A stretch of DNA of 20,000 nucleotides. It comes from an uncultured virus (IMG/VR IMGVR_UViG_3300031182_000006) (taxonomy: Duplodnaviria; Heunggongvirae; Uroviricota; Caudoviricetes). The notes under the pieces were generated by a model, which did not search any database, was not told the DNA's origin, and saw nothing but the letters and a program-made list of their open reading frames with translations. This document shows positions 1,085 to 16,885 of this stretch, one piece after another. The position numbers were made by a program, and so were the translations under genes. The DNA lies in IMG/VR virus record IMGVR_UViG_3300031182_000006. One strand, given 5' to 3'. Positions within the stretch are counted from its first letter, which is position 1. Each line of letters begins with the position of its first letter.

Positions 1085-1111
1085 AAAAGAAAGGGTTTGG
1101 TGAGCACCCAT

Positions 1112-1486
1112 ATGGAAAGAATTTACATTCTCACAGCATTATTTATTTTATTTGCAATTTTAGGTTTATTTATTCTTCGTCCACAGAGACAAAAGGAAAG
1201 TCCTACCATGGAGTATGAGCTTCTGATGGCTATTCTCGAAACAACTATTCAGAGAGAAATTAAAGTGAAAATGGATGATTACACCCTCCGGGGTGTTAAA
1301 TTCCCCTCTGATTACATGGAAGAAGTGCGTGAAGTCTGTCAGCGTATTGTAAGAGGAATCAGTCCTTTTATGTGGGAAGAACTTGAATTCTTTCACCCTA
1401 GAAAATACATTTTAGACAAGATAAATAAGGATGTACAACAATTCTTTATCACTTTCATTCGTGAGAATAAGCCTATAACAAGATAA
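1112..1486 (+). CDS. Hypothetical membrane-anchored protein (one N-terminal TM helix)
   Basis: ORF track starts at TTG 1097; ATG 1112 with SD GGTGAG 7 nt upstream is more likely. Hydrophobic segment IYILTALFILFAILGLFIL followed by RPQRQK. Confidence 0.75.
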   Translation: MERIYILTALFILFAILGLFILRPQRQKESPTMEYELLMAILETTIQREIKVKMDDYTLRGVKFPSDYMEEVREVCQRIVRGISPFMWEELEFFHPRKYILDKINKDVQQFFITFIRENKPITR

Positions 1487-3469: not shown

Positions 3470-3985
3470 TTACTTATTTTTCTCCACTGAGTCTATAAAT
3501 TCATTAAATATTTTCGGAATGTAATCTTTATAATCATCCTCAAAAATATATTCTTTCATACGATTATCTGTGTCCCAAATTTCAACTCGTTGTGTTTTAA
3601 ACAAAGAATGATCAGATCTTTCTTTCTTCACTATAAATATTTTTCCTTTATAAGTATAAAAATAAATTACATCTCCTGAATACATGTAGCTTTCAGGCAG
3701 TAAAAGACCAATAAATTTAGCTGCTTCTTCCGATAATAAGAACTGATCCTGGATAAAATTAAGAACTTTAAACAGAGATTCAATTTCTTTAATTAAAGTG
3801 CCCTCTACAATCATATCATCTTGGCTAGTATCAACCCTATTTGAACCAATACCGCTTTCTGTTTTCAATAAATCAATTAATTTTGTCACATTTCTTTGGT
3901 TATATTTATCCTTACTCGGGAAAAATTTAATAAAGAACGAAGGAAACGATCTGTTCTCTGTAGATGGTTCGAAATTATACTTCAT
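3470..3985 (-). CDS. Hypothetical protein, tandem paralogue of 2891..3424
   Basis: SD AAGGAG then ATG 3985 (track uses GTG 3994); blocks PSKDKY, FYTYKGKIF, IWDTD...YIFEDDY. Confidence 0.85.
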   Translation of the reverse strand: MKYNFEPSTENRSFPSFFIKFFPSKDKYNQRNVTKLIDLLKTESGIGSNRVDTSQDDMIVEGTLIKEIESLFKVLNFIQDQFLLSEEAAKFIGLLLPESYMYSGDVIYFYTYKGKIFIVKKERSDHSLFKTQRVEIWDTDNRMKEYIFEDDYKDYIPKIFNEFIDSVEKNK

Positions 3986-4059
3986 AAATAACACACTCCT
4001 TCTACATTCCTTATTAGTCGATTGTTTTTTGAACCGTTAAATTCAAATATTGCGTATAA

Positions 4060-4068
4060 ATAATATCT
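4060..4068 (-). promoter_or_regulatory. Early-type motif variant AGATATTAT
   Basis: One mismatch to ATATATTAT, upstream of the 3985-2118 unit. Confidence 0.4.
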
Positions 4069-4088
4069 ATTTCTTTTGTATTTTAATT

Positions 4089-4100
4089 AACAGTAAAATA
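4089..4100 (+). promoter_or_regulatory. Late-type promoter AACA-N6-TA driving a putative small RNA
   Basis: AACA GTAAAA TA directly precedes the GC-rich structured element; no plus-strand ORF follows. Confidence 0.5.
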
Positions 4101-4160
4101 AGGGTGCTCACCCACCTTAGAATCGTGTAGGGACCTTAAATAGGACCTACACGGTTTTTA
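4099..4160 (+). ncRNA. Putative small antisense RNA (sRNA-1)
   Basis: 5' hairpin TAAGG..CCTTA; 3' stem AATCGTGTAGG (4121-4131)/CCTACACGGTT (4146-4156) with a G-U pair valid only on + strand, then T tracts; 4102-4112 is the exact reverse complement of 1099-1109. Confidence 0.5.
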
Positions 4161-4170
4161 ATTTTTTACA

Positions 4171-4200
4171 AAAAAATAAACCTTCGTAAAGAAGGTCTAT
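4171..4200 (-). terminator. Intrinsic terminator after the metallopeptidase gene
   Basis: ACCTTC-gtaaa-GAAGGT stem with an A tract on its left (U tract on the minus strand). Confidence 0.6.
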
Positions 4201-4209
4201 GTATAGATA

Positions 4210-4713
4210 CTAATCCGCTATCCATTCAATATTCTTTACTCTCATTTCCATTTCAAAATGTATCCTAAAAATATCCTCCTGAGTTAAGTTCAGTCTTTCC
4301 ATATTTTCTTCTAGTATTTGTGCGGTCTCTCTAAGTGCCAGTATAGCATTTTCAAAACCTATAATCTTAGCCGCAACAGCATCTGCTTCCAACTCGTCTC
4401 TAGATACTCGTCCTTCGATTCTTGCTTTTTCTCTCTCGTCTCTAATATAACTATCATCGACATGACCTAACGTATTATGCGCTAATTCATGAAAGATAAC
4501 AAACCTTAAGAAATTTTCCGAATAAAGATTGGAGAATTCTTCATCGATAAAGACACCCATGGAAAGTGCAAAGAAAGGATTATTGAATAACTTTAAAGAA
4601 GGACCTACAAATACGGGAGCTGAATAATTACTATATTCCTTAAACTTCTCAGAATTGATGATCGCTATATCATATTTAGAACCTAAAACTTTCTCATATG
4701 TTTTTTGCATCAT
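4210..4713 (-). CDS. HEXXH zinc metallopeptidase (ImmA/IrrE- or M48-like)
   Basis: FVIFHELAHNTLGH plus downstream ELEADAVA third-ligand motif; SD GGAGG before ATG 4713/4710. Confidence 0.8.
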   Translation of the reverse strand: MMQKTYEKVLGSKYDIAIINSEKFKEYSNYSAPVFVGPSLKLFNNPFFALSMGVFIDEEFSNLYSENFLRFVIFHELAHNTLGHVDDSYIRDEREKARIEGRVSRDELEADAVAAKIIGFENAILALRETAQILEENMERLNLTQEDIFRIHFEMEMRVKNIEWIAD

Positions 4714-4788
4714 TAACACCTCCAAAATTTTATTTATTATCGTATATCAAATTTATAATGTGTAATCGTCTATTCAAAAAAGACGAAA

Positions 4789-4826
4789 AAAATAAGAGTC
4801 GTAGTATATACTACGACTCTTATTTT
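4789..4826. terminator. Intrinsic terminator of the 8179-4835 operon
   Basis: Perfect 38-bp palindrome AAAATAAGAGTCGTAGTATATACTACGACTCTTATTTT. Confidence 0.85.
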
Positions 4827-4834
4827 CCATTCGA

Positions 4835-5506
4835 TCAGGATGCAATTTTCTTGAGGATCTTTTTGATGAGTTTCTTCTTGCCCATATCCTCATCAACCTT
4901 GATCCTCTTATCGGCAGCAATCTTTCGAAGCTCTTTTCTACTGAGCTTCTCAAGTTTCTTCCGAATTTTATCTTTGTCGATATCAGCATTGAGCTGAACA
5001 CCGTGGCGTTCCATGGATTCGAACTTACGACCGAGAATCTTAGTCACTTCATCTTTGTTCTTGATGCTTCCAGCTTTCTCAGGTCCTTTTTCCAGGTACT
5101 TATCCCACGAATACGTCTTAAGTTGATACGTTGCTTCAATGTATTCACAGAGAAGCTTGACGTATTTTCTTTCCCATTCCGACTTCGAGCACAGAATGAC
5201 AACCTTCATGTCATATACGACAGCTGCTTTGACCATAACCGAGATAAACGCCTCGACTTCCGGATCTTGCAGCTGATTCATATATGCCTTCTTATAAGGT
5301 TTACTTTCCCCACTCACATAAAGGCTGATTACTGACGGAGTTGGAATGAGACGAGGGAAGCTCATGATGTTTTTCGGTTTATTCTCAATGTCTTTGATCT
5401 TGATGTCTTCGCTAATGAGAATAAACTGATACTCGTCGGTATTCTTCACATTCGGAAGAAACTCTTTAAAGAACTTCTTCGAGTTCATTCTGATAATTAC
5501 ACCCAT
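4835..5506 (-). CDS. Hypothetical protein with C-terminal Rho-N/HeH-like nucleic-acid-binding motif
   Basis: 223 aa, SD GGAGG, overlaps the kinase stop; C-terminus LEKLSRKELRKIAADKRIKVDEDMGKKKLIKKIL. Confidence 0.75.
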   Translation of the reverse strand: MGVIIRMNSKKFFKEFLPNVKNTDEYQFILISEDIKIKDIENKPKNIMSFPRLIPTPSVISLYVSGESKPYKKAYMNQLQDPEVEAFISVMVKAAVVYDMKVVILCSKSEWERKYVKLLCEYIEATYQLKTYSWDKYLEKGPEKAGSIKNKDEVTKILGRKFESMERHGVQLNADIDKDKIRKKLEKLSRKELRKIAADKRIKVDEDMGKKKLIKKILKKIAS

Positions 5507-7167
5507 TGGTTTTTACCTCCACGATTGAATTTATTGTTAAGTCTATCACGATCTGCTCGCTCTTGAAGATCTTCATACTCGTCTTCATATTTGTTTTGAG
5601 ACTCGTCGTCTTGTTCGTCAGTTAAACCACCAAGAGCTTGAAGTTCCCGACGAAGTTTTTCTGCCTCATCTTCTTCATCGGATTGAACCTCCTCCGAGGG
5701 ATCTTCCTGGGGTTCAGTATCCTCATTTTCAGATGCCGGCTCGGAAGAATCCACATCTTCCTCTTCCGTGGTCTCAGCTTGCTCTTCTTCAGGCGTTTCG
5801 TCAACAGTTACATCTTCGTCACCACCATCTTTGTTTTCAGTCGCAACAGGTGCCGATTCATTTTGCACTTCTTCAGACGATTCATCCTTTTTCGGCTCCT
5901 CTACAGCTACGACTTTCGTCTCCTCAGTGCTCTGAACGGTAACATTCCCGTCGCTAATCTGGGTAGTTTTCGTATGTTCGACCACTACCGTCGGCACAGG
6001 TTCAGTTTGTTTACCACTCTTTGCGGAGGAGATTTTCTTAAGGTCTTCCATTGCGCGCTCATATGCGTCTTCAGGGTCAACATGAAATTGCTGCCGGTAT
6101 CGAGGACCCTGGTTTTGGTTACCATGTGGTGGCTTCCGTTCTTGTTGTTTTTGCTCTTCCACCAGCTTCTTCAATTTCACTTTGTCAGTTATTTCTACAC
6201 TGTTTCGATAAACCTTTACTTGATACTGGTTTCCATTTTCCGCCGGTCGGTTAATGGTGGGAGTATCAACGCGTCTCATACTCTTCAAGAGTTCGAGGGT
6301 GTTGTCGTATGCGTCTCCTTCTCTCCCGGAATTGAATTCGCCAGGTCTTCCTTGGTTCATCTCTTCTTCCTCCTCTACATCGTCTTTGGGAGTGAAATAC
6401 TTGGAGGGCTTTTCCTCCCTCCTGGTGGTAGTTTCACTCGCCGTTTCAAACTCTCCGACTTCACTTGTGAGTTTGAAACTCATTTCCTTTGCTATAATGT
6501 TTTCTTGCATTTCTTGTTCAAATGGTATCATTCTCCTTAGGTCTTCAAATTTATACTTTTTGCCGCACTTCGGACAAACCATTTCATAGAAATTGACATC
6601 GTAATCGAGAATGGTCTGATCGTTACGGCAAATAATCTGCTCTGGATTCACCCTATAAATATGGGCGAAGTCCAGAATCACAAGCTTACCGTCATCTCTA
6701 TACCCCCAGTTAAGAAAGTTCTTCGTAACGGCACCCACGTCTCCCAACAAATAGGTTTCCGCAAGTACCGCCAAGATCTGTCTCACCTCATCAATCCGTT
6801 CAATGAATTCTTCCCGAGAGATTACCGTCACATATTCATGAACAGAAATGAGGTCATTAGTTTCATAAGTTTTAACTACAAATGGCTGAAGCTCTTTGGA
6901 TAATTTAAACTCGTTTACATTATCACGTTTACCTTGTTGGTCAAACGCAATTTTGAAAACGAAGTTGTCGATAAGGATCGCCATCCGGTTTGTACCTGGA
7001 CCAAGCTCGGCATGATCAATACCATGCTTGTTCAGAACATTGAGAATCATGTCTGCTTTGACATTGTTGTTCCCAATTGTTCTGTCCATACAAATCCGGT
7101 CGAGATCCACCAATGCTTCAGGAGTAAAATATTGGTGTATTCTACTACGAAGTCTTTTGGTTGGCAT
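5497..7167 (-). CDS. Protein kinase-like (PKL/APH fold) protein with Zn-ribbon and acidic disordered C-terminus
   Basis: 556 aa; G-loop LGPGTNR, VFKIA lysine, helix-C NVNEF, catalytic loop LGDV..NFLNWG, VILDFA (DFG-like), then ICRND...CPKCG and an E/D-rich tail. Confidence 0.75.
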   Translation of the reverse strand: MPTKRLRSRIHQYFTPEALVDLDRICMDRTIGNNNVKADMILNVLNKHGIDHAELGPGTNRMAILIDNFVFKIAFDQQGKRDNVNEFKLSKELQPFVVKTYETNDLISVHEYVTVISREEFIERIDEVRQILAVLAETYLLGDVGAVTKNFLNWGYRDDGKLVILDFAHIYRVNPEQIICRNDQTILDYDVNFYEMVCPKCGKKYKFEDLRRMIPFEQEMQENIIAKEMSFKLTSEVGEFETASETTTRREEKPSKYFTPKDDVEEEEEMNQGRPGEFNSGREGDAYDNTLELLKSMRRVDTPTINRPAENGNQYQVKVYRNSVEITDKVKLKKLVEEQKQQERKPPHGNQNQGPRYRQQFHVDPEDAYERAMEDLKKISSAKSGKQTEPVPTVVVEHTKTTQISDGNVTVQSTEETKVVAVEEPKKDESSEEVQNESAPVATENKDGGDEDVTVDETPEEEQAETTEEEDVDSSEPASENEDTEPQEDPSEEVQSDEEDEAEKLRRELQALGGLTDEQDDESQNKYEDEYEDLQERADRDRLNNKFNRGGKNQWV

Positions 7168-7195
7168 CTATCTCACCTTTTCTTAGTTTTATTTT

Positions 7196-8179
7196 TTATT
7201 TAAAGATGTCTGCAACTGTAAACGATTCCATTTCAGCCTGGAAGTCTTCGAAGCTATCATAACCTCCATCTGTCATCAGTTGGACAATCAGATTATCCTG
7301 ATTATATGCGTCTTTCTTCTTCTTTTTCTTTTTCTTCTTTTCATCTTTAAAGATCTTCGAAATTCTCTTGCTAACACCAGCTTTACGCATGAGTTTAACA
7401 GAATTCCAGCCGAGCTTACCAAGCTCTCTATAGATGGAAACTTCGTCCATCGATTCTTTATTCATATATTGACCACGGAAGAATACAACCTCACGTTCTT
7501 CTTCTCTGGTATCACGAAGTTTCTTAGCAAACGTACCGTCGCAATAATCCGACAAAGAGAAGACAGTATCATCACTTTCTTTCTTGTAATTTCCGCTATT
7601 TTTGGTCCGGAAATATTCTTCCAAGAATTCAATACTATTCGAAATATTTTTCAAAGAAATTTTACGAGACGACTTAATCTCACCTTTTCTGATGAGTTTC
7701 TTAACAATTTTCTTTTTCTTTTTATCAACGTTTTTACTTCCGAAAACCCGAACAACGCCTTCTTTATTTTTTTCATTCTCAGGAACGTATAAATTCTCGA
7801 TCTTATCGAGTGTTTCTTCATTGATATCGTAACTTCTCCGCTTACTGATGATAATATTGTTTTTCAATGAAAATTTATTGAGTTCGTTAAGTTTGAGTCC
7901 CGGTTTAGGCGGAATAAACTCTGTAACCTGATTATATTTAATTTTCAATTTAAGAATTTCAACGCCACCATACTTCTTTGCCAACAACGACATGTATTCA
8001 TTATAGATGGTAACTGCTTTGAGAAAATCTGTGATGTCCTTATATCTTCTGCGAATCCTTCTAGCTTCCCGTTCAAGTTCGCTGGAAGGTTCGTCGTTGA
8101 ATCTATGATAGTTATCACCGAAATCTTGCACATATACTTCGAGTAATGCGCTTTTAGCAGTTCCGAAATTAATCTGCAT
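7196..8179 (-). CDS. Hypothetical Lys-rich protein
   Basis: 327 aa, SD GAGGAGG; poly-Lys tracts DKKKKKIVKK and EKKKKKKKKKD. Confidence 0.85.
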   Translation of the reverse strand: MQINFGTAKSALLEVYVQDFGDNYHRFNDEPSSELEREARRIRRRYKDITDFLKAVTIYNEYMSLLAKKYGGVEILKLKIKYNQVTEFIPPKPGLKLNELNKFSLKNNIIISKRRSYDINEETLDKIENLYVPENEKNKEGVVRVFGSKNVDKKKKKIVKKLIRKGEIKSSRKISLKNISNSIEFLEEYFRTKNSGNYKKESDDTVFSLSDYCDGTFAKKLRDTREEEREVVFFRGQYMNKESMDEVSIYRELGKLGWNSVKLMRKAGVSKRISKIFKDEKKKKKKKKKDAYNQDNLIVQLMTDGGYDSFEDFQAEMESFTVADIFK

Positions 8180-8218
8180 TTATTTTTCCTCCTCATTAAT
8201 ACGATTTTCGATGTAGTT

Positions 8219-8227
8219 ATAATATAT
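8219..8227 (-). promoter_or_regulatory. Early-type motif ATATATTAT
   Basis: Exact motif 40 nt upstream of ATG 8179, just downstream of a terminator. Confidence 0.55.
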
Positions 8228-8245
8228 ATTCTATTTTTAAATAAA

Positions 8246-8289
8246 AAATGTTAGAGTGATATTTACTAAAAAATATCACTCTAACATTT
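8246..8289. terminator. Intrinsic terminator after the Nudix gene
   Basis: About 19-bp stem AAATGTTAGAGTGATATTT / AAATATCACTCTAACATTT. Confidence 0.8.
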
Positions 8290-8316
8290 GTCTTTATTTT
8301 TTATTCTTGTTTCTAT

Positions 8317-9138
8317 TTAGGAGGTTAGAACGTCAATCGCCCAGCTATCGAGCTCATCTTTTAGACGGTCCACCTCGGAGAGATCAAAGCAGAAAACATC
8401 ATGTTTCTCAGGCTCCCCAGATTTGATCTTACTGATGAAATCTTCGTTTATCTCGTTTACATCTATTTGGTAAATAAGCCCTATATGTTCGAGATCTGTG
8501 AATGTTTTTGTTTTAAGCAGACCAAAAGTTGGGTACTCAGGAATGGATTTGAGGATTTTGTCTTTGATCGAACTATCCTCAAACATAAGTTCTTCTTCGA
8601 TCTCTCTCTTAATAGACAGACGCAAATAATTTATTTCGGGATTAAAATAGATCTCAGGACTGAATTCGACGTGTCCTTGGATCAATGTGATCTTTTTTGC
8701 TATACGATTATTTTCATTAGTTTTAAGCATAATCACTTTCTTCCCGTCAGTAATAAATGCGCCTACGACAATCTGTCTGTATCTAACATCATATTCAGCG
8801 TCACAGCGCTGAATAAATCGTACAAAAGGATCTTGTGTATAAAGCAATTTATTACTAAAAACAAAGTTTCCGTCATGAGCCAGTTCTTGTTCTTTTGAGT
8901 TTACATTCAAAGTAAAGACGGGCCAATCCGAATCCTCTGTGTAAATTATGTCAGATGCCAGACAGAGAAGATATTTTGAATATTTTTCTTTGTCGAACCT
9001 GAGAAGAGAGTTTCTCAGCTCATATTTGATATAGTTATAGCTATCGGAATCTACTGGGTGTTTACGGAGTTCAGACTCAAGATCCCGAATCCTCTCCAAT
9101 GTTACGGGACTCTCCCGATCCATATAATTTTCGGACAT
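8317..9138 (-). CDS. Nudix hydrolase
   Basis: 273 aa; QGHVE...SIKREIEEEL Nudix box with an insertion; YRQIVVGAFI and HIGLIY resemble YmaB-type Nudix proteins. Confidence 0.75.
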   Translation of the reverse strand: MSENYMDRESPVTLERIRDLESELRKHPVDSDSYNYIKYELRNSLLRFDKEKYSKYLLCLASDIIYTEDSDWPVFTLNVNSKEQELAHDGNFVFSNKLLYTQDPFVRFIQRCDAEYDVRYRQIVVGAFITDGKKVIMLKTNENNRIAKKITLIQGHVEFSPEIYFNPEINYLRLSIKREIEEELMFEDSSIKDKILKSIPEYPTFGLLKTKTFTDLEHIGLIYQIDVNEINEDFISKIKSGEPEKHDVFCFDLSEVDRLKDELDSWAIDVLTS

Positions 9139-9171
9139 TTAAAAGCTCCTTTCCGTTTCTACTTCCCCATA

Positions 9172-9810
9172 TTAATTTGTTTTTTGAGATTTATTTTTTA
9201 ATTTATATTCTTCATATGCTTCTTTAACACCTTTATCACAGAGCGAGTTTTGAAGGATGATAAACGCAAATTCTTCATCGCTAACCTTACAATTATTAAA
9301 TTTTTCAAATTTTTTCTTAACTTGTTTCATATTTTTACTAGAAACATGTGAGTTTACATGAAAGAATTCAACCTTGATCTTTTTCTCTTTCTTCAACCAC
9401 TCTATATATGCAAAAGATTTCAATATCTCTTCTTGATTGATAACTGGCTCATTGTTCGAATTATACAAAATACCATTTTTCGCTCTCCTTATCCAACCAT
9501 ATATCCATTTAGTTAAGGAATTATAATAAAGCATCGAATCGGTAAAAACTTTTACTTGATATTCTCCTTTATATAATTCACTTTCTTTGATTTTTTGAAC
9601 AACCCATTCCAAACCTTTTCTAATAGCATTGATTTCTGAGAAATTTCCTGTCGCATTTACATTGACATTTTTCTCCTCATATGCCAACTCAGGCTTAGAA
9701 TTATCTATAACATGCAACACACGAACTGATGTTACAGAATCGAATTTAGGTGGTTTTTCTTGGGTTCGAAATTGGCCACCATCAGTAAATATGAGAAACT
9801 TTATCATCAT
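9172..9810 (-). CDS. rnhA: Ribonuclease HI
   Basis: IFTDGG (D), NFSEINA (E), VFTDS (D), WIYGW, HVNSH, NSLCD (D): the complete RNase HI catalytic set; start at ATG 9810/9807 after SD GAGGTG. Confidence 0.9.
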   Translation of the reverse strand: MMIKFLIFTDGGQFRTQEKPPKFDSVTSVRVLHVIDNSKPELAYEEKNVNVNATGNFSEINAIRKGLEWVVQKIKESELYKGEYQVKVFTDSMLYYNSLTKWIYGWIRRAKNGILYNSNNEPVINQEEILKSFAYIEWLKKEKKIKVEFFHVNSHVSSKNMKQVKKKFEKFNNCKVSDEEFAFIILQNSLCDKGVKEAYEEYKLKNKSQKTN

Positions 9811-9817
9811 AGTCACC

Positions 9818-10132
9818 TCATTCTTCTATGCATGTTATGTATTCGGGTGGTATAACATCAATCGCAATTAATTCATCATCATATACTCCCTGAATAAGTG
9901 GGAAATCATCCGGTAGAGTTACCTTTAAAATTACAGTTTCCTCATCTTCGCCAAAGAAATCTTCGTCCATCCAACTACCCAAAGCATCTTCTAATGCTTC
10001 AATTGTTTTAAATAAATAAACTCCTTTCGGATCATTTACACGTATGGTATTTTTACCAATTTGTGGAATAAGCCCTTGTTTCATTATGGATTCTTTATTT
10101 TCTGCTTTTGTTATATGATAACAATAACGCAT
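9818..10132 (-). CDS. Stand-alone ADP-ribosyltransferase-fold protein (Tpt1/KptA C-lobe-like)
   Basis: 104 aa; YHIT...IMKQGLIP...GVYLF...VILKV...DDELIA..VIPPEYI. Confidence 0.65.
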   Translation of the reverse strand: MRYCYHITKAENKESIMKQGLIPQIGKNTIRVNDPKGVYLFKTIEALEDALGSWMDEDFFGEDEETVILKVTLPDDFPLIQGVYDDELIAIDVIPPEYITCIEE

Positions 10133-10134
10133 TT

Positions 10135-10200
10135 TTACATCACCTTACCTAAAAGTTGCTCAAAAAAATGAACTATAATATAAGGCGGCCGCCTTGCCAT
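10135..10200 (-). CDS. Possible 21-aa micropeptide MARRPPYIIVHFFEQLLGKVM
   Basis: Perfect SD AAGGAGG (10210-10216) 9 nt before ATG 10200; stop ends 3 nt before ATG 10132. Alternatively this is only the antisense face of sRNA-2. Confidence 0.35.
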   Translation of the reverse strand: MARRPPYIIVHFFEQLLGKVM

Positions 10201-10263
10201 CTGGTTTGACCTCCTTCATCCCATTGGGCTTGTATACATTCGTTGTATACAGGCCGCCTTTTT
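10181..10263 (+). ncRNA. Putative structured small RNA (sRNA-2) with exposed anti-SD
   Basis: GC-rich island; AAGGCGGCC (10182-10190) pairs with GGCCGCCTT (10252-10260); 12-bp stem 10227-10238/10244-10255 with a plus-strand G-U; T tract; CCTCCTT at 10210-10216; preceded by AACT-ATAATA-TA. Confidence 0.45.
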
Positions 10264-10275
10264 ATTCTATAAATA

Positions 10276-10319
10276 AAAAATATACCGTATACCTTCATTG
10301 AGGTATACGGTATATTTTT
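10276..10319. terminator. Bidirectional intrinsic terminator
   Basis: 19-bp stem AAAAATATACCGTATACCT / AGGTATACGGTATATTTTT. Confidence 0.85.
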
Positions 10320-10656
10320 ATTGTCTTTTTACCGAAATGACATCAAATTTATACTCATTAAATCCGTTAAACAACGAATCATCAACTTCAAGTAAAAGGG
10401 AGTTACGAATTCTTCCTTTGATATATGCATCATTGTCATATCTAAACTCTTTTTTCACAGCTTCGGTAAGCTGGTCTTTGAAGTTTTTCATTGCCGCATA
10501 AGGTACAAATTCTCCGGTCTCGCGGCCAGCAAAGTCGTAATCTTCTAGTTTAAGTTCGGGAAAACCAATAACAATACAGCTTATTTTCTTCGTTTCATCA
10601 TTTCTCCCAATTAGTACCCTAAACGAAAAGATAGTTGGTTTATCATAGAACATCAT
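10318..10656 (-). CDS. Hypothetical protein
   Basis: 112 aa, SD GGAGG, in an operon with the upstream genes. Confidence 0.8.
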   Translation of the reverse strand: MMFYDKPTIFSFRVLIGRNDETKKISCIVIGFPELKLEDYDFAGRETGEFVPYAAMKNFKDQLTEAVKKEFRYDNDAYIKGRIRNSLLLEVDDSLFNGFNEYKFDVISVKRQ

Positions 10657-10683: not shown

Positions 10684-11352
10684 TTATTTAGTAACAATTT
10701 CGTCTAGAGTTTCTGGAAGAATGAATCCATCGACCTCAAGATAAGTATATTTCGTTTCAATAATACTCATATCTTGTTTTTCAATTTCTTTCGACATTTT
10801 AAGTTTAATTTGGAGCATTTCCTTGAGATCGTCAGAGATATATTCATCATATTCCTCGATGAATTGAATGAAATTTCCTCTGACGTTTTGAAGCGGGATA
10901 AAAAGTTTACCAGAATGTACCAATTGATGAACAGTGGTTGACAAGGGAATAAGACCGACCTTGTTCTGATAATGAAGTTTCATAACTTCTTTCGCAATCT
11001 TGAGCGGTCTGATCGGATTTCCCTCACGAATCCATTTTTCAAGCACAATTTGGGTAATATCATAAAGGGTAAAAGGTTCGTGATGAATCTCAATGGACAC
11101 TTTACCTTTACCGTTTTTTACCACACCTTGAAAGAATGAGCATTGTGTCATGTCAATATATTCACGCAGGTAACCAGTATAGTCTTTATTTTCAAGAGAT
11201 GAGCGAACATCCCGCTCGATGCTTTTGATTAACTTAACTTTATCTTTATCAGATGTAATGACAACATTTCGACTTGTCGGGGGAATATTTTCTATTCTTT
11301 TTACCTCTATTTTACTATCATTGGTGTAAGATTCAATCTTAGGTAATCGCAT
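10684..11352 (-). CDS. HNH-like jumbo-phage protein, paralogue of 443..1084
   Basis: 222 aa; QC..IEIHHEPFTLYD and LSTTVHQLVHSGKLFI align with ORF 443. Confidence 0.7.
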   Translation of the reverse strand: MRLPKIESYTNDSKIEVKRIENIPPTSRNVVITSDKDKVKLIKSIERDVRSSLENKDYTGYLREYIDMTQCSFFQGVVKNGKGKVSIEIHHEPFTLYDITQIVLEKWIREGNPIRPLKIAKEVMKLHYQNKVGLIPLSTTVHQLVHSGKLFIPLQNVRGNFIQFIEEYDEYISDDLKEMLQIKLKMSKEIEKQDMSIIETKYTYLEVDGFILPETLDEIVTK

Positions 11353-15754: not shown

Positions 15755-16465
15755 TTATTTTAGTATTTTTTGGATTTCCGCGAAAATATCTTCTGAGATG
15801 TCTTCTCTAGTTCTCATATTTCCATCGGAATTTACGCAATTTATGGGAACCCATTTACAATATGGAACAATTTTTTTGTTGTTTTCATAGACCATTCGTA
15901 AATGGGTGTAATTTTCATGGATGTCGTAATTGTCGTTACCGTTATACCTTTGGCTTATATTTTTTAATGCCACTTCTGGAGTCACGTCCAAATAAAAGAC
16001 TACAGTTGGTTTTGGCAAACCTAGAGTACTATACTCAAAATCTTCGATCCAATCAACAAGTCTATATTTTTCTTCAACGTTTTCAATATTCGAGGTTTGG
16101 TGGAGGATATTAGACGTGGTATAACGATCACAAATTATGAAAGCCCCATTCATATAGTCTTCATAAAGAGTTGTTCCACTGGTACGTGTTTTGAAGAGCG
16201 TTGATACCCTATCTACTGCATAGAATGTACAGATTTGTTTCAAAAACGTCATTCTATCGATGATTTCTTTACTTCTACCGAAATTTCCATTGAGATAGCT
16301 TTTAACAAGGGCAGACGACGAGTCGTCGTAGTTAGGAAAGGAGACTAACGTGGAAATGACATTTGATTGTTGTAATTTACTCTGCAAAAGTTCCGATTGT
16401 GTTCTTTTAGATGCTCCGTCCATTCCTTCAATGACAACTAAAATTCCTTGGTTCACATTTCCCAT
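15755..16465 (-). CDS. tmk: Thymidylate (dTMP) kinase
   Basis: VIEGMDGASKRTQ P-loop, SFPNY, FYAVDR, ICDRYTTSN, LPKPTVVFYLDV, DIHE; ATG 16465 after GGGGG. Confidence 0.9.
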   Translation of the reverse strand: MGNVNQGILVVIEGMDGASKRTQSELLQSKLQQSNVISTLVSFPNYDDSSSALVKSYLNGNFGRSKEIIDRMTFLKQICTFYAVDRVSTLFKTRTSGTTLYEDYMNGAFIICDRYTTSNILHQTSNIENVEEKYRLVDWIEDFEYSTLGLPKPTVVFYLDVTPEVALKNISQRYNGNDNYDIHENYTHLRMVYENNKKIVPYCKWVPINCVNSDGNMRTREDISEDIFAEIQKILK

Positions 16466-16491
16466 TTTTCTAACCCCCAATAAATAGCATT

Positions 16492-16502
16492 TATTATTAG
16501 TT
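16492..16502 (-). promoter_or_regulatory. Motif AACTAATAATA (third promoter-like class)
   Basis: Lies between a terminator and the tmk start; same pattern at 16790-16800 and 17826-17836. Confidence 0.4.
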
Positions 16503-16514
16503 TATAGAGAAATA

Positions 16515-16553
16515 ACTTAGTAGAGGGGTAGAAAATCCACCCCTCTACCAAGT
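16515..16553 (-). terminator. Intrinsic terminator
   Basis: GTAGAGGGGT (16520-16529) / ACCCCTCTAC (16539-16548), extended by ACTT/AAGT. Confidence 0.75.
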
Positions 16554-16568
16554 CATCAATTAATCAAA

Positions 16569-16658
16569 TCATTTCAGCGACTTCAGGAATTCATTGAATT
16601 TTTCTTTGTTAGAGATGATACATTCAAGTTTGCGTATATCGATCTCCTTCTTTTTCAT
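16569..16658 (-). CDS. Possible 29-aa micropeptide MKKKEIDIRKLECIISNKEKFNEFLKSLK
   Basis: Lies between a promoter motif (16741-16749) with SD AAGGAGG (16672-16678) and a terminator; a competing 13-aa ORF 16624-16665 has better SD spacing. Confidence 0.4.
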   Translation of the reverse strand: MKKKEIDIRKLECIISNKEKFNEFLKSLK

Positions 16659-16740
16659 ATCCCATTTTATACCTCCTTTTCATTTTGAATATTTTCCGTT
16701 CTCTGTAGGATGAATATATTATTCATCTATATTCAGATTA

Positions 16741-16749
16741 ATAATATAT
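16741..16749 (-). promoter_or_regulatory. Early-type motif ATATATTAT
   Basis: Exact motif upstream of the micro-ORF unit. Confidence 0.5.
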
Positions 16750-16813
16750 GTTTATTATGATCGACTCTCCGCAAAATTCGTAAAATGCCTATAATTAGTT
16801 CATAGAAAAAAAA

Positions 16814-16844
16814 TAAGCGATGTCTGATTAAAAGACATCGCTTA
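16814..16844 (-). terminator. Intrinsic terminator
   Basis: 12-bp stem TAAGCGATGTCT / AGACATCGCTTA plus A8 tract. Confidence 0.85.
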
Positions 16845-16885
16845 ATCATTGCTTACATGCACCCATTATAAATTAAGTGCAAGCG

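Follow-up and report, generated by a model that had tools for sequence, protein, structure and literature searches.

Two predicted late small RNAs with anti-Shine-Dalgarno seeds and specific candidate targets in an AR9-like jumbo phage

Introduction

Tuning of single operon genes late in infection is an open question for lytic jumbo phages that have only two promoter classes. It is raised here by two plus-strand elements, starting near positions 4099 and 10181 of a 20,000-nucleotide (nt) stretch from an uncultured virus (IMG/VR record IMGVR_UViG_3300031182_000006; Caudoviricetes). This stretch, called the window below, corresponds to bases 192,219-212,218 of a 212,288-base viral contig. The initial annotation had suggested that both elements belong to a family of phage small RNAs (sRNAs) aimed at ribosome-binding sites. 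The questions are thus whether they are RNA units at all, which start regions they could recognize, and whether they belong together. The phage is an AR9-like jumbo phage, its two phrog_12252 genes in the window matching those of AR9, PBS1, phiR1-37 and staphylococcal jumbo phages. In AR9, late promoters have been reported as AACA-(6N)-TA/G and early promoters as AAATATATATTAT-(6N)-G (PMC5312081).

Results

Two non-coding late-promoter units

Judged from motifs and predicted folds, both elements are real, non-coding units, each with a late promoter (AACW-N6-TA) and a terminator of its own:

4089..4100, plus strand: late promoter AACA-N6-TA of RNA-1, following the PMC5312081 consensus
4100..4159, plus strand: predicted RNA-1, about 60 nt, recognized by its fold; no Rfam or tRNA match
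10171..10182, plus strand: late-type promoter AACT-N6-TA of RNA-2, conserved in position among relatives
10182..10263, plus strand: predicted RNA-2, about 82 nt, recognized by fold, ensemble and pairing

The common start on TAAGG after AAC(A/T)-N6 is indeed present twice, at 4099 behind AACA at 4089 and at 10181 behind AACT at 10171. Under the AR9 rule, the inferred first bases are A4100 and A10182, leaving the T of TAAGG untranscribed; AACT variants are present among the mapped AR9 late starts. The motif AACA-N6-TA is enriched in the spacers of this phage, with 13 intergenic vs 14 coding matches (1.31 vs 0.20 per kb), seven control motifs reaching 0.1-0.9 per kb.

RNA-1 is predicted to open with a hairpin (4101-4118) that exposes the anti-Shine-Dalgarno (anti-SD) loop CUCACC at 4107-4112, and to end in a terminator formed by the stem 4124-4131/4146-4153 (hairpin 4124-4153) and a T run at 4155-4159. 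RNA-2 carries the seed GCCAUCUGGUUUG at 10196-10208, a bulged A10209 and the anti-SD sequence CCUCCUU at 10210-10216, followed by a terminator hairpin at 10227-10255 and a T run at 10259-10263. Both folds are far more stable than those of shuffled sequences (z of -4.5 for RNA-1 and -5.9 for RNA-2, with 0/200 shuffles as good in either case), and the C-rich stretches noted initially as complementary to ribosome-binding sites, the CUCACC loop of RNA-1 and the ACCUCC loop of RNA-2, are unpaired in the predicted ensembles. The 5' TAAGG hairpin attributed to both elements holds for RNA-1; in RNA-2 the AAGGC/GCCUU hairpin is limited to the nascent 5' part, and in the full-length fold the 5' end is paired with the 3' end. 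No tRNA match was found at either element, and Rfam returned seven weak matches over the window, all below the gathering score, so that no family (RsaE/RoxS, C4 and others) is assigned; one of them, the trpB motif at 10227-10322 (40.8 vs 59 bits), reflects the hairpins.

RNA-1 is complementary to the start region of gene 1112

To look for partners, we used 192 start regions. The window and its flank supplied 39 of them, and G009, a record 99.99% identical to this phage, the other 153. Energies were compared with those of control RNAs made by mirroring real start regions (mirror controls) and of shuffles in which the loop of RNA-1 or the SD motif of RNA-2 was kept fixed. For RNA-1, this pointed to one gene:

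1092..1109, plus strand: predicted RNA-1 target site, AGGGU at 1092-1096 plus 11 exact bases at 1099-1109
1112..1486, plus strand: gene of the predicted target, a 124-amino acid (aa) protein whose homologs place the start at ATG 1112

The 11 exact bases span the GGUGAG SD and the spacer ahead of ATG 1112. The duplex of 16 bp has a predicted energy of -29.5 kcal/mol, the best among 1575 stretches of the window (mean -8.4, standard deviation (sd) 3.1), and ranks 1/192 over the start regions; none of 40 mirror controls and none of 100 loop-fixed shuffles reaches this value. The dimer gain is -18.3, to be compared with a mean of -2.1 (sd 2.4). Gene 1112 comes second, after gene 443-1084, in a late operon with its promoter at 385-396; it is conserved in relatives, where it is usually syntenic. 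Its product is predicted to contain an N-terminal transmembrane helix and four helices (predicted local distance difference test, pLDDT, 88). We considered a holin and rejected this assignment, since no family, solved-structure or fold match had an E-value below 0.001. For strain X8, which differs by <1%, no change is listed in either RNA-1 or the target site. The contigs of two RNA runs leave both elements uncovered and those of another break at both, a pattern that carries no information on expression.

A second exact copy of the target 11-mer lies at L346:19442 on the minus strand (G009 54929). It overlaps a stop codon about 50 bases ahead of a 99-aa gene and is a possible secondary site (-24.4).

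RNA-2 is complementary to the start region of a distant gene

Among the 39 start regions of the window and its flank, RNA-2 had no partner above chance (14/39 controls were as good). Its positional conservation, together with the partners found in the relative G006 (both described below), suggested that the target lies in DNA beyond the window. Over the full set, the gene of a 175-aa protein ranked 1/192 at -39.2, its start region being taken from G009. The predicted pairing covers the SD, the spacer and the AUG with 20 bases, arranged as 7 + 13 bp around a one-base bulge: the site reads AAGGAGG, a one-base bulge, and 13 exact bases through the AUG. Neither the 40 mirror controls nor the 100 SD-fixed shuffles reach -39.2, and the dimer gain is -23.4 (mean -3.0, sd 4.0). 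The site is present in two viral contigs only, that of G009 and the window's own (~9401-9421), where it lies outside the window, 193 kb from RNA-2. Exact and wobble pattern scans of this contig returned the element itself only, because the true site carries the bulge.

Thymidylate synthase heads the operon in which the 175-aa gene comes third; this operon has early- and late-type motifs. The product of the 175-aa gene is a single-pass protein with a C-terminal membrane helix. Both top targets belong to the 15 proteins, out of 192, that have a strong hydrophobic helix. Weaker RNA-2 sites on the DHFR operon, at a 202-aa gene (-32.1) and a 400-aa gene (-28.4), fall within the control range.

The two RNAs could instead be general anti-SD sponges, or be aimed at host mRNAs, their best phage matches being incidental. 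Any strong SD can pair with CCUCCUU, further sites for RNA-2 are found at -28 to -32, and a UCC core with no clear phage partner is retained in most relatives. Against this, when the SD motif is held fixed, 0/100 shuffles reach either top partner, and searching 185,579 genomes for the mirrored RNA-2 site returned 17 scattered matches, about the chance expectation, with no coherent gene. We regard this explanation as very unlikely.

Other candidates for RNA-2 were dropped. Gene 7196-8179 is locally the top partner in 4/4 close relatives, but its genome-wide ranks there are 1/186, 4/210 and 53/259, and it ranks 11/39 here; as the best of 85 ortholog triplets (uncorrected p 0.0015), it is a lead for relatives only. 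Gene 4835-5506 (rank 3/39) was not retained either. A 22-base exact mirror of RNA-2 was also seen at L001:10001-10022, in the start region of a gene on an unrelated tailed-phage contig, the only such match in the viral collection besides RNA-2 itself. It is probably due to chance, and may alternatively reflect targeting of a rival phage.

These mirrored sequences could also matter on the minus strand. Element 2 would then consist of an SD and a leader peptide of 21 codons (10198-10133), with coupling to gene 9818-10132, and GGTG-N2-CACC in element 1 would be a palindromic DNA operator. AAGGAGG-N9-ATG does open a 21-codon frame whose stop lies 2 bases ahead of the next ATG, and the 11-mer found at 1099 recurs inverted at 4102 and once more at G009 54929. 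The mirrored frames vary in length and phase among relatives, however, and a strong terminator lies directly upstream on that strand; as for an operator, the third 11-mer sits on a stop codon and only one GGTG-N2-CACC site exists in 162 kb of G009. We find this explanation very unlikely as well.

Conservation of position and turnover of targets

The RNA-2 locus was followed in related phages; the two elements have these neighbours:

10684..11352, minus strand: phrog_12252 paralog, ortholog of AR9 g242; across relatives the RNA-2 locus lies 3' of this gene, in convergent orientation
10276..10319, both strands: bidirectional terminator of the minus-strand operon, a back-up stop for RNA-2
4176..4200, minus strand: separate terminator of gene 4210-4713, which converges on RNA-1
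9172..9810, minus strand: RNase H gene, a neighbour of RNA-2 only, with no link found

A convergent AACW-N6-TA promoter lies 3' of the phrog_12252 paralog in 21/31 related spacers (14/22 clusters at 90% identity) vs 22/176 control spacers, a count that leaves out the window, L012 and G006, where a gene is inserted. Wrong promoter spacings gave 1-8 of 31, and the N6 itself varies. The promoter follows the paralog even in loci that lack RNase H, and as a partner of RNA-2 the start of the RNase H gene ranks 32/39; a link to RNase H is not supported, and this gene was dropped as a target.

In G006, the RNA at the RNA-2 position has a 20-bp partner 92 kb away (rank 1/280, 0/40 controls) that encodes a 243-aa singleton, and a 14-base exact match to the gene 1112 ortholog (rank 2/280). 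Such 14-base matches join only 28 of 39,060 start-region pairs, and the two RNA/gene 1112 pairs, in this phage and in G006, are cognate-specific. Gene 1112 is thus matched in two phages by unrelated RNAs, and in other relatives it is not. At the RNA-1 position, late promoter and terminator elements are present in four relatives (L091, L011, L012 and L006), three of which start with TAAGG. The best local partner of the L091 RNA is the first gene of the same late operon (1/26), the partner of the L011 element is not above controls (5/40), and the L012 element overlaps the SD of the neighbouring gene; the L006 element has another fold and no partner and was rejected as an equivalent.

In relatives, genes for ThyX (G005, G003) and dCMP deaminase (G001) are among the top or second predicted partners (loci L212:9937-11388, L182:860-2191 and L170:6375-6890). 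They are not above controls where tested, and echo the thymidylate operons matched here.

A promoter kept in this position could alternatively be a convergent late promoter that serves antisense transcription or makes polymerases collide at a shared hairpin; the short RNA would then be a by-product and the mirrored start regions copied DNA patches. In AR9, an antisense late start is mapped at 207906, at the 3' end of g242 and in the same orientation; many distant relatives have a bidirectional hairpin and an RNA body with no partner above chance; and collision-driven termination has been described for E. coli (10.1101/2022.10.23.513370). However, each element here has, as initially described, its own hairpin and T run facing a separate minus-strand terminator (4176-4200; 10276-10319), and an inserted gene parts RNA-2 from gene 10684. 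Moreover, a by-product would not be expected to show 16-20 bp of correctly oriented complementarity to one distant start region, twice here and again in G006. We consider this alternative unlikely, while granting it some weight.

A shared design with no support for a common ancestry

The proposal of a single RNA family did not survive comparison. The two RNAs have no alignable sequence, and neither alignment with their syntenic counterparts contains a consensus pair. The shared TGTA/TACA and TAAGG, which had been taken to link them, carry no sign of homology, 714 of 1000 shuffles matching the local alignment score. A sequence-only model run over 60 sources (1.18 Mb) recovered the training sequences and one match at an E-value of 0.33. 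RNA-1 and RNA-2 thus have a design in common and do not form a homologous family.

Nor is a layer of numerous such RNAs detectable across the genome: a promoter-plus-terminator scan over seven genome sets gave 37 matches vs 23-38 for seven control motifs, that is no enrichment. False AACAT motifs, which arise from ATG-TT starts on the opposite strand, were filtered in this and in the locus scans. One third candidate unit was noted at L374:1649-1716 (G009 81649, plus strand), with AACA-N6-TA, 33 unpaired C-rich bases, a 10-bp hairpin and U7. It follows another terminator, and its best partner over the 192 start regions (-26) is not above controls.

Neighbouring features

The early-type minus-strand promoter expected to the left of both elements is present for RNA-1:

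4053..4072, minus strand: early-type promoter of gene 3470-3985, one mismatch to AAATATATATTAT, +1 G at 4053

It stands back to back with RNA-1, a further late promoter of that side lying at 4026. Left of RNA-2 there is only the 8-base core TATATTAT of the early motif, with no site within 2 mismatches. Elsewhere, the 420-base spacer 16466-16885 contains two long hairpins, facing TATATTAT motifs and an AACT-N6-TA site at 16630 (minus strand), as well as, near 16678, a short frame that is not listed and has a strong SD.

The phage encodes thymidylate synthase (L370:6576-7508), DHFR (L372:2747-3340) and thymidylate kinase (window 15755-16465), which suggests thymine DNA. The AR9 polymerase has been reported to read the late motif only with template uracils at -11 and -10 (PMC5449584). 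The polymerase of this phage, using AACA-N6-TA despite the suggested thymine DNA, may have dropped this requirement.

Discussion

Proposed mode of action

The top-ranked, specific start region found in silico for each RNA and the conserved position of the RNA-2 promoter agree with the initial idea of phage sRNAs that target ribosome-binding sites; a 'guide-like', protein-guided function found no support. We consider it probable that the two elements encode trans-acting anti-SD sRNAs by which the phage represses its own genes late in infection. They would be two independently evolved, stand-alone RNAs made late by the phage non-virion RNA polymerase, each exposing an anti-SD seed whose flanking bases add specificity. 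Each would pair in trans with the start region of one phage mRNA and so block 30S loading. For RNA-1, the CUCACC loop would meet the GGUGAG SD of gene 1112 before the 5' arm invades to complete the 16 bp. RNA-2 would pair through 7 + 13 bp with the SD, spacer and AUG of the 175-aa gene, and perhaps more weakly with the two genes of the DHFR operon; a form of about 140 nt, ending at the back-up terminator 10276-10319, is possible. The net effect would be that single-pass membrane proteins encoded in polycistronic messages are damped late, with the neighbouring genes staying on. Why these proteins would be damped is conjecture.

Several points weigh against this reading. Transcription of both RNAs, and with it the late timing, is inferred from sequence, and pairing in vivo and repression are extrapolated from the predicted duplexes. 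The start regions were called with a simple gene caller of our own, about 192 of the 212 kb being covered. Exact matches of 11 bases are common (80/192 start regions share such a word with another), so the case for RNA-1 stands on energy and not on length. The 175-aa protein has no family match and no ortholog in the nine genome sets searched. Among seven other genomes, the RNA-2 locus clearly beats controls in G006 only; G003 and G008 are borderline (2/40 each), and G001 (13/40), G002 (19/40), G004 (24/25) and G007 (25/25) are not above them. As for gene 1112, no orphan intergenic partner was found within 10 kb at 11 related loci, its orthologs rank 48-182 in G001-G003, and for the syntenic RNA-1 of L091, gene 1112 of the window is a better partner (-24.9) than the L091 ortholog (-5.4).

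A broader and more doubtful proposal, for which we would give less than an even chance, is that AR9-like phages keep fixed 'sRNA slots', each a late promoter with a terminator, whose seeds are rewritten in each lineage toward new target start regions. This would be a re-programmable, protein-free layer; here both slots would damp single-pass membrane proteins, possibly lysis, exclusion or envelope factors, the gene 1112 family being hit from different slots in different phages.

The two RNA-target pairs come with base-level predictions and can be tested with reporters, whereas the few reported jumbo-phage sRNAs have no targets. They also flag two membrane proteins of no named family as worth tight control, and in AR9, a cultured model, late starts of this design have been mapped and filed as antisense.

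Comparison with known systems

In type I toxin-antitoxin systems, a small antitoxin RNA masks the start of a membrane-protein mRNA, and the very small toxin gene overlaps or adjoins the RNA. The two RNAs described here are likewise predicted to mask the starts of membrane-protein genes, but their targets encode 124 and 175 aa, lie in operons 3 kb and 193 kb away and are not known to be toxic.

Jumbo-phage sRNAs have been seen by RNA-seq in other phages: misc_4 of phiR1-37, with guessed host targets (PMC4848604), and 11 sRNAs of 201phi2-1 including the conserved, 5'UTR-derived sRNA005 (PMC11512511). One predicted in phiKZ was not confirmed (PMC8244752). Those of phiR1-37 and 201phi2-1, as described in these sources, resemble RNA-1 and RNA-2 in being short and non-coding, in coming from phages with their own polymerases and, for one, in conservation by position. 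They are expressed and have no shown target, whereas RNA-1 and RNA-2 are known as sequence and have predicted phage start-region targets. The words 'Bacillus', 'jumbo' and 'Gram-positive' do not occur in the text available for a 2025 review (PMC12197685), and searches of open PMC and bioRxiv showed no paper that describes RNAs of this kind, with targets, in AR9-like phages.

In AR9 itself, the transcriptome lists seven antisense late starts, and the main text of that paper contains neither 'sRNA' nor 'non-coding' and assigns no targets (PMC5312081). These starts use the same AACA-N6-TA/G promoters as the RNAs of the window, the RNAs not being homologous. Downstream of the strong late start mapped at 75478 (minus strand) come an unpaired CCUCC leader and a 16-bp hairpin (L202), and downstream of the late 'antisense' start at 115851 (plus strand) a short C-rich leader and a terminator-like hairpin (L204). 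The best predicted partners of the putative 75478 RNA are at -26.8 and -26.7. A late RNA filed as 'asparagine tRNA', with more than 200,000 fragments per kilobase per million (FPKM >200,000), runs from AR9 207979 onward (plus strand; L004 ~816-1120), co-directional after g242; it starts about 250 bases ahead of the tRNA-like end and contains several anti-SD-like stretches.

The mechanism proposed here also has a parallel in the C-rich anti-SD sRNAs of Bacillota, such as RsaE, other Rsa RNAs and the loops of RNAIII (PMC2790875). As described there, these RNAs also combine a 5' hairpin with an unpaired C-rich seed against the SD, an intrinsic terminator, specificity derived from the flanks and a predicted block of initiation. 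RNA-1 and RNA-2 differ from them in being phage-encoded, predicted to be made by a phage polymerase and to target the phage's own genes, with no Rfam match; their seeds are CUCACC and CCUCCUU where the Bacillota sRNAs use UCCC (PMC2790875), and their targets turn over fast.

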